Shown: in pieces, positions 36,001-39,000 of the stretch | Layout of the letters: each line of letters starts with the position of its first letter | Numbering within the stretch: the first letter of the stretch is position 1 | Source: Escherichia coli O127:H6 str. E2348/69 | GTDB lineage: Bacteria > Pseudomonadota > Gammaproteobacteria > Enterobacterales > Enterobacteriaceae | Strand: one strand, 5' to 3' | DNA: 64,000 nucleotides | Assembly: GCF_000026545.1 (NCBI RefSeq) | Contig: NC_011601.1 | Made by a program: the position numbers

Positions 36001-39000
36001 CATTAAGTAAATCATCCCAATTAATTCTTGATGATGTATCTAAAGAATGTAATGCATTAGTCAGTGACAAATGAACCTTATTCATTATGTCCTGCATTAA
36101 GACCAACTCGATAGCCTGGATATCTTTAACCCATTTTATCGATTGGTTAACCTCTTTATCTAATTTTATTTTATTATTTTTTCGAATCCTTTCTCTCATT
36201 GCAATCATTTTTCTGGCAATTTTTTTTCTGGATTCTATCTTTAATTCTTTCGATTTCCTCCTCGCCCTCAGTAAATGTTCATATGTTTTTTTTCGAGCCA
36301 GTTTGATAATATCATCAGATTGAATAATTTCCTGTAACTTATCCTCTGGTATGATATCTTCTGTAAGCACTAAATCAATTTCTATATTTTTAAATTCATA
36401 AAGTTTCATAAGGCAATAAAATTTTATTAAGTCTGTTAAGAAATAAATCATTAATATGAGTTGGTTTTATTTCTCCACTTTTCGGTAAAAGATATTTGAC
36501 TATGGTCCATAAAGGATTATCAGCAAATAGCCACTCCAAATTTCCTGCACCGTATTTTATTAACTCAGCACAAAACCGTTCTTCACCATATTCTGGTTTA
36601 CATTGCCCTCCCTGCCAATAGAATGATAACTGCTTCACATTTTGATATCCTATCTCTCTAATCAGAGTTTCTCGATATAATCGTGAGAAAATATAATCAG
36701 GGCATTGAATGTCAAATAATGCACTACTTAGAGCAAGCAATCTTATTTTCCCAATTGACTGATATAAAAAACCTTCCTTATTTATGTCAGATAATTCCAC
36801 ACCAGAAATTTTATCTTGTATCTCCTGACGCAATATCTTATTGAGTTGATTACGAGTAGAACTAGTTTCTCTTAAACGCCGAAAACTGACCTGATTGACA
36901 CCGGTTAAATCACCTAGCCATTCATCATGAACCATCATGATTGGATAATTAATTAATTTATAGTAGTTATAGTCTATTTTATTAAAAATTGTCATACTAT
37001 TTTTCTATTATTTCTATTCCGTTGATTCATTGTTGATTGGCTTTTAGATCTTGCTGGACTCAGTGTCTCTATTAGTTTTTCAATCTTACTTAGGGCAGAA
37101 TCATATAATTTTCGCTCTTCACCATATGTGTACCCCTCAATTAATTTGTTTAATTTTTCTGCCGCCTGAGGATCTGTTTTTGCTTTTTCACTTAACTCAT
37201 TAACGCTTTCTTTTACGACATCAAATTCGGCGATTATTTTTTTTATCGCCTCAATTTCTGATCTTATTTTTTTATCTAATAGTTCTTTATTTCTTGTTTG
37301 GCTCACAATACTCATCCTCTATTTATTATTAATCCTGATTCGCATTATCTCTATAGTCCTAATTGCCGCATCACACGCAATGAGCAGTTCCTTTGCTTCA
37401 TTGTAGGTAACTTTATCCAAAGGGTGTTTCATTTTTTCATGGATTTCGTTCTTTTTGTCGTTTATTTTTTCAATAAAAACATTTGCGGCTTCTTTATTTT
37501 TTATTATTTCGTCTTCCAGCTCAGTTATCGTTATCATTTAATTATTTTATGTTAAATATTTTTCAGCGGTATTATTTCTTCTTCAGTGTCCTTCACAAGA
37601 AAATCTTCTTTCTTCATTCCATTCAACAGTGCTTCTTTAAGCCAGCGTGGCTGTCGGCCTACGCCCGACCAGGTCTGCCCTTCTTCATTGCGGTAGTAAA
37701 CACCTTTCGATGAGTTCCGGCGAGCGAGTCCATCATCAGGCACATTAGTATATCCCAGCTCTTGTAAGGTTATATTGTAATAAGTAATCTGCTTCTGAAT
37801 CGACTCAATTACACTTTGAACTTCCTGCTCTCGCAGTCGCTTTGCTTCCTGCTGTAGAACTGCAATTTGCTCTATAAGCTGAATGTATGGACTTGTTGTA
37901 TGTGAATTAGTTTCCATATTCATAATAAATAATCTCCGCATGCTTTAATATTTTAAGCTATTAGCGACCTTATCCTTATCAGGAAGGACAACAATTAATC
38001 AAATGATATAAATTATGTGAGATAACGTTTATCTATCAAATTAGGACACATCTATTTCATCAAACAACCACCTTAAAATGTTATTATTCTCTGTTTTCTA
38101 ATGTGTAAAATACATTATCATTAAATGTCAACAAAAAAAATCATATATTTTTAAAATCCATTTAAAATCAATGATATAGAAGAAAACCATCTCGTTAACA
38201 AACGACTTTAATAATTGCATTTCCATTTAGTTAAGCGTTTCTCTTTATAAGATAGATCTCATTGCATAAACAAATAAAACAGAATAAAAACCAAGCTGAA
38301 CCGTTTCACTATACTCTACTTAATTCGAGTTACAGGAAGGCGGCAAGCGAGTGAATCCCCAGGAGCTTACATAAGTAAGTGATTGGGGTAAGCGAACGCA
38401 GTCGCAGCACATGCAACTTGAAGTATGACGAGTATATATATCTATTAGCTGTCTCCCGGACATAAGCTACAGCCAGCACTAACCTGGAACGGGTGCATTA
38501 TAAAAAGGAACAAGGGACAAATAGCTGAACAAGTAACCGCGTTAGTCTCTTCCCGCATAACCGTACCATTCGTATTAAGAAGTATTGCCCATATCCATTC
38601 GGCGAAAGAGGATCTGCCATACATCAAGTCCGTTTTACTTGGCATCAGATCATCGCCGTCATTAACTCTGTTAAAGTCGGACAAACGATTAGCAAGATCT
38701 GTGATTCAAAAGTGCATAGCGCTAAGGTGGGACTGGTTACAAATTCATTAACCCTGTTCTTTGTCGCACCTATCGATCGGTGTAATGCCACAACAGGTTT
38801 ATGTTAATCAGAACAATGCGCCCCTCTATAAAGAGAATTCTTTGATAAGGCAACTTGAAAAGGGAAAGCTAACTGATATCAATGTACCACTTTAGTAATC
38901 ATCACATTATATACAGGCCAAAATAAGTTTCCTGAAAGCCAGTATCTCTAAATCAATCATTAATGGTATATTTTATCGTCACAATAAAAAATTATCTAAA

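Follow-up and report, generated by a model that had tools for sequence, protein, structure and literature searches.

A full-length ERIC element in the ler-espG spacer of the Escherichia coli LEE, probably an inert passenger of one island lineage

The spacer between the divergent ler and espG genes of the LEE pathogenicity island of enteropathogenic E. coli (EPEC) E2348/69 contains a genuine full-length ERIC element. The element falls in the stretch that separates the two diverging transcription units; the mapped ler mRNA does not include it, and the predicted espG promoter is downstream of it. We regard it as probable that it is a fossil MITE insertion which now persists as an inert passenger, distal to the mapped inputs of LEE1.

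The window analysed here, 64,000 nt in length, covers this island, and its positions 37900-39250 are 100% identical to positions 45804-47154 of NZ_CP059840.2. An initial annotation of the window had put the non-coding gap between ler and espG at 1.25 kb, which is about right: it measures 1251 bp by the longest ORFs and 1320 bp from the ler ATG to the RefSeq ATG of espG. The spacer is a mosaic, with a block of higher G+C content set within AT-rich promoter DNA; in a table of 100-bp G+C values, the parts next to LEE1 (37900-38299) and next to espG (38900-39199) both have 20-29% G+C. The features discussed below are collected in Table 1.

Table 1. Features of the ler-espG region, in window coordinates.
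Feature	Position	Strand	Basis or remark
ler start codon	37923	-	RefSeq annotation
LEE1 P1 promoter	38102..38131	-	-35 TTGACA 38131->38126, 18-bp spacer, -10 TACACA 38107->38102; read from sequence
Cra (FruR) operator-like site AGTGAAACGGTTCA	38297..38310	-	0 mismatches to RSTGAAWCSNTHHW (motif scan)
Block of 34-47% G+C, with ERIC and IS remnant	38300..38899		100-bp G+C table
ERIC element, complete, 127 bp; plus strand TATACTC...GAGTATA	38310..38436		alignment, consensus identity, primer matches, hairpin
Left terminal inverted repeat TATACTC	38310..38316		leading TA is one copy of the target-site duplication
Right terminal inverted repeat GAGTATA	38430..38436		closing TA is the second copy of the target-site duplication
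Degraded IS3-family fragment	38551..38698	+	left-end untranslated region and first ca. 28 codons of orfA, start codon lost
Promoter-like espG site, TTGACA-16-GATACT	39173..39200	+	prediction; 44 bp upstream of the ATG at 39244
espG start codon	39244	+	RefSeq annotation

Identity and boundaries of the element

The ERIC family, also called IRU or RU-1, has been known since 1990-91 (Sharples & Lloyd 1990; Hulton et al. 1991). Its published hallmarks are a length of 127 bp, 7-bp terminal inverted repeats, TA termini, a target-site duplication, and long stem-loops (PMC2229807). The LEE sequence was aligned with ERIC copies at four chromosomal loci of other E. coli genomes (ybhJ-ybhI, yeiL-psuT, yafP-rtcB, and yeiS-preT). 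The block common to the LEE copy and the four chromosomal loci corresponded exactly to positions 38310-38436, and the flanks diverged at once on both sides. In NZ_CP059840.2, this block occupies positions 46618-46744. Within these borders, the LEE copy is identical to the four-copy consensus at 120 of 127 positions (94.5%), with no indels. Its 7-bp terminal inverted repeats are perfect, with TA at both termini. The sequence of the ERIC1R primer matches exactly at 38351-38372 (minus strand), and that of the ERIC2 primer matches with two mismatches at 38373-38394 (plus strand); no matches were expected by chance for either (100 shuffles). The presence of an ERIC copy between ler and espG, proposed in the initial annotation, is thus borne out, and the alignment suggested there as a check returned a full-length match where a poor one was to count against the proposal. 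The extent given there, 38303-38440, does contain the element, but overshoots it by 7 nt on the left and by 4 nt on the right.

Chromosomal ERIC copies in genomes without the LEE matched the LEE element with E values down to 4e-48. A chance or low-complexity resemblance, with no repeat element at this place, is contradicted by these matches, by the full-length identity free of indels, and by the zero chance expectation for both primers, and we give it no credence.

The element has a pronounced potential to form hairpins as RNA. The predicted folding energy was -46.3 kcal/mol for the plus strand (z -5.8) and -37.3 kcal/mol for the minus strand (z -4.1), and none of 200 shuffled sequences folded as well. 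The copy between ler and espG is the sole one in the 64-kb window, as judged by the primer match scan. Of 5426 complete E. coli genomes searched by blastn, 5425 contain ERIC-like places, and the median number in a genome is 11. The LEE copy resembles other members of the ERIC/IRU/RU-1 family in its length and similarity over that full length, its TATACTC/GAGTATA terminal repeats, TA duplication, and long imperfect palindrome, and in belonging to a multicopy set located outside genes.

The spacer was also scanned with Rfam, which has no ERIC family. A single end-to-end match was obtained, to RF02818 (V_AS5, Vibrio RNA AS5; model positions 1-129, 36.6 bits, E 7.7e-6), and nothing else was found. 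Membership in V_AS5 was rejected, since 36.6 bits is below the gathering threshold of 96; the match suggests that the V_AS5 family may have been built on a Vibrio relative of ERIC. Another RNA, sRNA350, was rejected as a candidate for the ler-espG spacer, because the literature puts it downstream of cesF (PMC5030294, PMC8565820).

Insertion history and distribution among LEE lineages

Local alignment revealed that the ERIC is absent from the ler-espG spacers of E. coli 06_3288, O103 RM8385, and E. albertii NBRC 107761. Overall, the spacers of 06_3288 and O103 RM8385 are ca. 80% identical to that of E2348/69. In the alignment, the gap in the empty-site alleles is exactly 125 bp, which is the length of the element (127 bp) less one TA. 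At the empty sites the sequence is ...C-TA-TATAGC..., and at the occupied site it is ...CAC-[TA TACTC...GAGTA TA]-TATATC.... Since the gap is exactly 125 bp and a single TA is kept, we conclude that TA was the target site and that it was duplicated.

To survey complete E. coli genomes, a query was made by joining the two 200-bp flanks of the ERIC without the element itself; counts of presence and absence span 696 LEE-positive genomes. Matches with at least 95% identity to the query were obtained in 454 genomes, and all 39 among those listed were in two pieces spanning 520-527 bp, which indicates that the ERIC is present. Matches with ca. 74% identity were obtained in 233 genomes, and all 20 among those listed were in a single piece spanning 419-433 bp, which indicates that it is absent. 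The ERIC is thus missing from about one third of related islands (ca. 454 with versus ca. 233 without). The group with the element includes E2348/69, O157:H7, O55:H7, O145:H28, and O111:NM/H2. The group without it includes O26:H11 and O111:H11, and the same ERIC-less allele is found in O103 RM8385. The LEE of Citrobacter rodentium was not retrieved by a Ler-based scan of species genomes. The LEE copy differs from the ERIC family at large in that it resides in a horizontally acquired island and that its presence or absence cleanly separates island lineages.

At least 455 genomes share an identical sequence of the element, an observation that fits constraint and recent common ancestry alike. No variant sites were observed in the 142 bp that comprise the ERIC and the adjoining Cra site among the E2348/69, O157:H7, O55:H7, and O145:H28 alleles. 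The same four alleles differ by ca. 17 events in the remaining 1178 bp, so that only about two would be expected in 142 bp; the comparison therefore has no power and says nothing about special constraint.

Two unusual alleles were found. In Escherichia sp. MOD1-EC7003, an ERIC at the same insertion site carries a 72-bp internal deletion bounded by AGT microhomology; no such internally deleted ERIC was found among complete E. coli genomes. The rare mosaic allele of the chicken strain Z1323CEC0015 has an ERIC that is nearer to the chromosomal consensus than to the E2348/69 copy, and immediate flanks nearly identical to those of E2348/69. This ERIC may be a retained ancestral state or a product of ectopic gene conversion; a search for an exact chromosomal donor of the consensus-like sequence found none.

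A second mobile-element relic starts 115 bp to the right of the ERIC (Table 1). At the DNA level it is 74% identical to genes annotated as IS3-family transposases in ca. 650 records (pairwise E 1e-19), and it is also matched by OrfA in a tblastn search (E 2e-8), while no Pfam match was found for its decayed peptide. Because the remnant is shared by lineages with the ERIC, the E. coli allele without it, and E. albertii, it must be older than the ERIC insertion. We propose that the ERIC, a 127-bp non-autonomous MITE, would have inserted once, after deposition of the neighbouring IS3-family fragment, at a TA in the ler-espG spacer of one LEE lineage, duplicating this TA. It would then have been inherited vertically with its island lineage, which is now represented by E2348/69, O157:H7, O55:H7, O145:H28, and O111:NM/H2.

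Transcription units and the putative Cra site around the element

The hexamers of the LEE1 P1 promoter have been described by Islam et al., and the ler AUG is located ca. 170 nt from the 5' end of the transcript (PMC3262186). From the hexamers and the length of this leader, P1 transcription would begin near position 38095, which puts the ERIC at about -215 to -341. LEE1 fragments that begin 275 bp upstream of the ler ATG, and hence lack the ERIC, retain P1 activity, and sequences farther upstream have a marginal effect only (PMC3262186), in experiments conducted with EHEC fragments, mostly in E. coli K-12, and without a precise deletion of the ERIC from the native island.

On the other side, the ERIC ends about 770 bp upstream of the predicted espG start. 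The promoter-like sequence at 39173-39200 is the only good candidate for an espG promoter, and it is conserved in the divergent 06_3288 allele; a literature search found no published account of an espG promoter or transcription start site. A scan of the spacer revealed no promoter-like or terminator-like sites in or beside the ERIC, and neither a gene 3' end nor a promoter facing it was found. All four chromosomal ERICs compared are downstream of the 3' end of at least one gene. In contrast to the family, the LEE copy is located between two diverging promoters, not downstream of a gene or among co-transcribed genes, and is therefore probably not transcribed.

The initial annotation had viewed the element as a transcribed palindrome that could alter mRNA stability. 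This view finds no support here, with the ERIC ca. 215-341 bp upstream of P1 and ca. 770 bp upstream of the candidate espG site. Where it lies with respect to the mapped P1 and the predicted espG promoter speaks against a place in a transcribed region; as judged from the sequence, the ERIC is unlikely to be part of either neighbouring mRNA. An element that is upstream of both promoters leaves a mechanism based on RNA stability without an obvious substrate. The co-transcribed ERICs of Yersinia (De Gregorio et al. 2005, in PMC2229807) belong to the same family and share the hairpin potential of the LEE copy, but they are inside transcription units, while the LEE ERIC is upstream of both neighbouring promoters. 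The Yersinia mechanism would thus not be expected to apply to it.

The element could still be transcribed if it were part of an unmapped RNA, either a long LEE1 leader that begins near a minus-strand promoter-like site divergent from espG or a plus-strand RNA reading to espG, in which the 127-nt hairpin would modulate stability or processing. Very stable hairpins are predicted on both strands, and Yersinia ERICs do alter the stability of flanking transcripts in an orientation-dependent manner (PMC2229807). Moreover, a promoter-like site matching at 10 of 12 positions is present on the minus strand (39018->38991), ca. 550 bp to the right of the ERIC, with no terminator-like site between it and ler. 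However, the spacer contains seven promoter-like sites versus 6.6 expected from shuffled sequences, so this far-upstream site is probably a chance match, and the major LEE1 5' end is ca. 170 nt from the ATG (PMC3262186). In addition, fully functional LEEs such as those of O26, O103, O111:H11, and E. albertii have no ERIC, and in one genome the element has an internal deletion. We consider a role in such an RNA unlikely.

The ler-proximal end of the ERIC adjoins a Cra operator-like site, with which it shares base 38310 only. On the ler promoter of EHEC, a Cra footprint has been reported "around -350", with a site located in the interval from -393 to -255 (Njoroge et al., PMC3482499). In the 64-kb window, matches to the Cra 16-mer with up to three mismatches were no rarer than expected by chance. 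The numbering of Njoroge et al. is presumably counted from the proximal (P2) start, ca. 32 nt before the ler ATG. With this offset, which is consistent with their -173/-42 fragment containing P1, the motif is at -342 to -355 and coincides with the footprint. The case for a Cra site here consists of a match to a degenerate consensus and of this positional coincidence.

The footprinted site is on the ler side of the ERIC, within flank DNA that existed before the insertion, and the shared T38310 is also present at the empty site. The ERIC therefore neither created the operator nor separates it from the promoter. All ERIC-containing alleles have a Cra consensus match in the spacer, which in MOD1-EC7003 is a perfect TGAAACGTTTCA, and no match with up to one mismatch was found anywhere in the spacer of the E. 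coli and E. albertii alleles that lack the ERIC. With the consensus confined to ERIC-containing alleles, the two features are linked in evolution, and a joint role for them is possible. The claim of the initial annotation that the element is in a region with regulatory input for both ler and espG thus holds for ler, by virtue of the adjoining operator-like site, but not for espG, for which no input was found at or near the ERIC.

A role at the DNA level would have the cruciform-capable ERIC, together with the IS block, separate the AT-rich promoters bound by H-NS and Ler, or set the geometry of the Cra operator. The rise in G+C content, to 34-47% over 38300-38899 versus 20-29% on both sides, is in line with such a role, as are the contact between the footprinted operator (PMC3482499) and the left ERIC end and the confinement of the consensus Cra site to ERIC-containing alleles. 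ERIC-less alleles, however, retain the IS-remnant block and a similar spacer length, so insulation would need no ERIC, and the operator, T38310 included, consists wholly of pre-existing flank DNA. We view this possibility as quite doubtful. Taken in general, a non-neutral ERIC, acting either through an undetected far-upstream transcript or as a DNA boundary by the Cra operator, appears very improbable to us.

An inert passenger is thus the preferred explanation. The ERIC is dispensable for a working LEE, since major A/E pathogens lack it and one lineage has an internally deleted copy. We infer that it is inert today. The outermost mapped control site of LEE1 would be the Cra operator, which touches the ler-proximal end of the element, and at most the ERIC would serve as spacer DNA that marks the outer edge of the LEE1 regulatory region.

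Significance for the LEE

An ERIC was reportedly noted in the LEE sequence of E2348/69 by Elliott et al. in 1998 and in that of EDL933 by Perna et al. in 1998, and is said to be absent from the RDEC-1 LEE described by Zhu et al. in 2001. The ERIC of these original sequence papers is the same element in the same place, and the absence from some LEE lineages agrees with the distribution described here. A literature search for work linking ERIC and the LEE found nothing relevant. The presence of an ERIC in the LEE was already known, as the family itself has long been. What is added here is minor: the precise borders of the element, the empty site with its single TA, genome counts by lineage, the observation that the Cra operator touches the ERIC, and the adjoining IS3 remnant.

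By itself, the LEE ERIC is of little importance, and the by-products of its analysis are practical. The occupied and empty alleles form a rare clear pair of ERIC sites showing TA duplication. The element also marks the end of the mapped LEE1 control region, and widely used reporter and probe fragments cut through it: probe aa of Njoroge et al. (-450 to -255) takes in ca. 96 bp of the ERIC, and their -393 to +86 fusion takes in ca. 39 bp.

The ERIC is, in addition, a clean lineage marker that divides LEE islands into two deep groups, which differ also in the consensus Cra operator. Were the element non-neutral after all, lineages with both the ERIC and the operator (EPEC1, O157:H7, O55:H7, and O145) and lineages with neither (O26, O103, O111:H11, and E. 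albertii) would differ in sugar control of Ler, the master virulence regulator. The difference in the operator suggests that the Cra-dependent control of ler by sugars demonstrated in O157:H7 may be absent from O26, O103, or O111:H11 strains.

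Order of insertions in the ler-espG spacer

The spacer between the divergent ler and espG genes contains, besides the 127-bp ERIC inserted at a TA dinucleotide, a decayed insertion-sequence fragment of the IS3 family, which has lost the orfA start codon and lies within a block of 34-47% G+C. Since this fragment is also found in E. coli LEE alleles lacking ERIC and in E. albertii, we conclude that it predates ERIC. A segment of ca. 22 bp (ATATATCTCCCCCCCTTTTCCC-like) is missing from E2348/69 and its close relatives at window position ~38475, after ...GCTACAG; it is carried by ERIC-less alleles, E. 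albertii, and MOD1-EC7003.

Features of the spacer and of two variant ERIC alleles
Feature	Location	Strand	Remarks
Cra consensus site, perfect match	window 38297-38310	-	adjoins ERIC; same position as published Cra footprint on EHEC ler promoter (PMC3482499)
Two mechanical ORFs, 47 and 49 aa	window 38320-38479	-	cross ERIC
Decayed IS3-family fragment	window 38551-38698 (block 38437-38900)	+	left end and ~28 orfA codons
ERIC insertion, internally deleted	Escherichia sp. MOD1-EC7003, fetched locus L011, reverse complement of 1-800		
ERIC of mosaic LEE allele, 126 bp	E. coli Z1323CEC0015, fetched locus L031, 608-733		

Variant ERIC alleles and rearranged islands

The insertion in MOD1-EC7003 is the same as that of E2348/69, minus 72 bp internally; the deletion is bounded by AGT microhomologies and leaves a 55-bp remnant. 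Beyond CCGTACCATT of the IS remnant, the MOD1-EC7003 spacer passes into unrelated DNA. No such internally deleted allele was found among complete E. coli genomes. The ERIC of Z1323CEC0015 differs from the E2348/69 element at approximately 8 positions and is nearer to chromosomal ERICs (97.6%) than to the E2348/69 copy, while the 108 nt to its left contain only one indel relative to E2348/69. This allele may have arisen by gene conversion between ERIC copies, or may retain the ancestral state.

In O111:NM/H2-type strains (O111:NM FWSEC0005, locus L029) and in strain 13E0767 (L010), similarity to the window ends at ~38767, and an IS3-family transposase pseudogene replaces the expected espG side; 13E0767 has an additional ISEc23 to the left of ERIC. 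The LEE island in these strains is therefore rearranged.

ERIC copy number, Rfam match, and reading frames

A search of E. coli genomes revealed 18 ERIC-like places per chromosome in several O111 and other LEE-positive strains (the listing gives no serotype for the latter), compared with a median of 11. The surplus could possibly stem from a multicopy mobile element that contains an ERIC. The sole Rfam match, V_AS5 (RF02818, a Vibrio antisense RNA family; window 38309-38432, 36.6 bits), is aligned end to end, which suggests that this family was built from a Vibrio ERIC-like repeat.

As inferred from published numbering, one locus tag (E2348C_3969 and Z5141; PMC3891560) is skipped between ler and espG, and some ORF in the spacer was therefore probably annotated formerly. 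Nothing suggests that the mechanical ORFs crossing ERIC represent a genuine gene.

Cra site and LEE lineages

The Cra consensus is absent from the whole spacer in the ERIC-less LEE alleles of O103, 06_3288, and E. albertii. Judging from this distribution in the sequences, control of ler by Cra may be lineage-specific.
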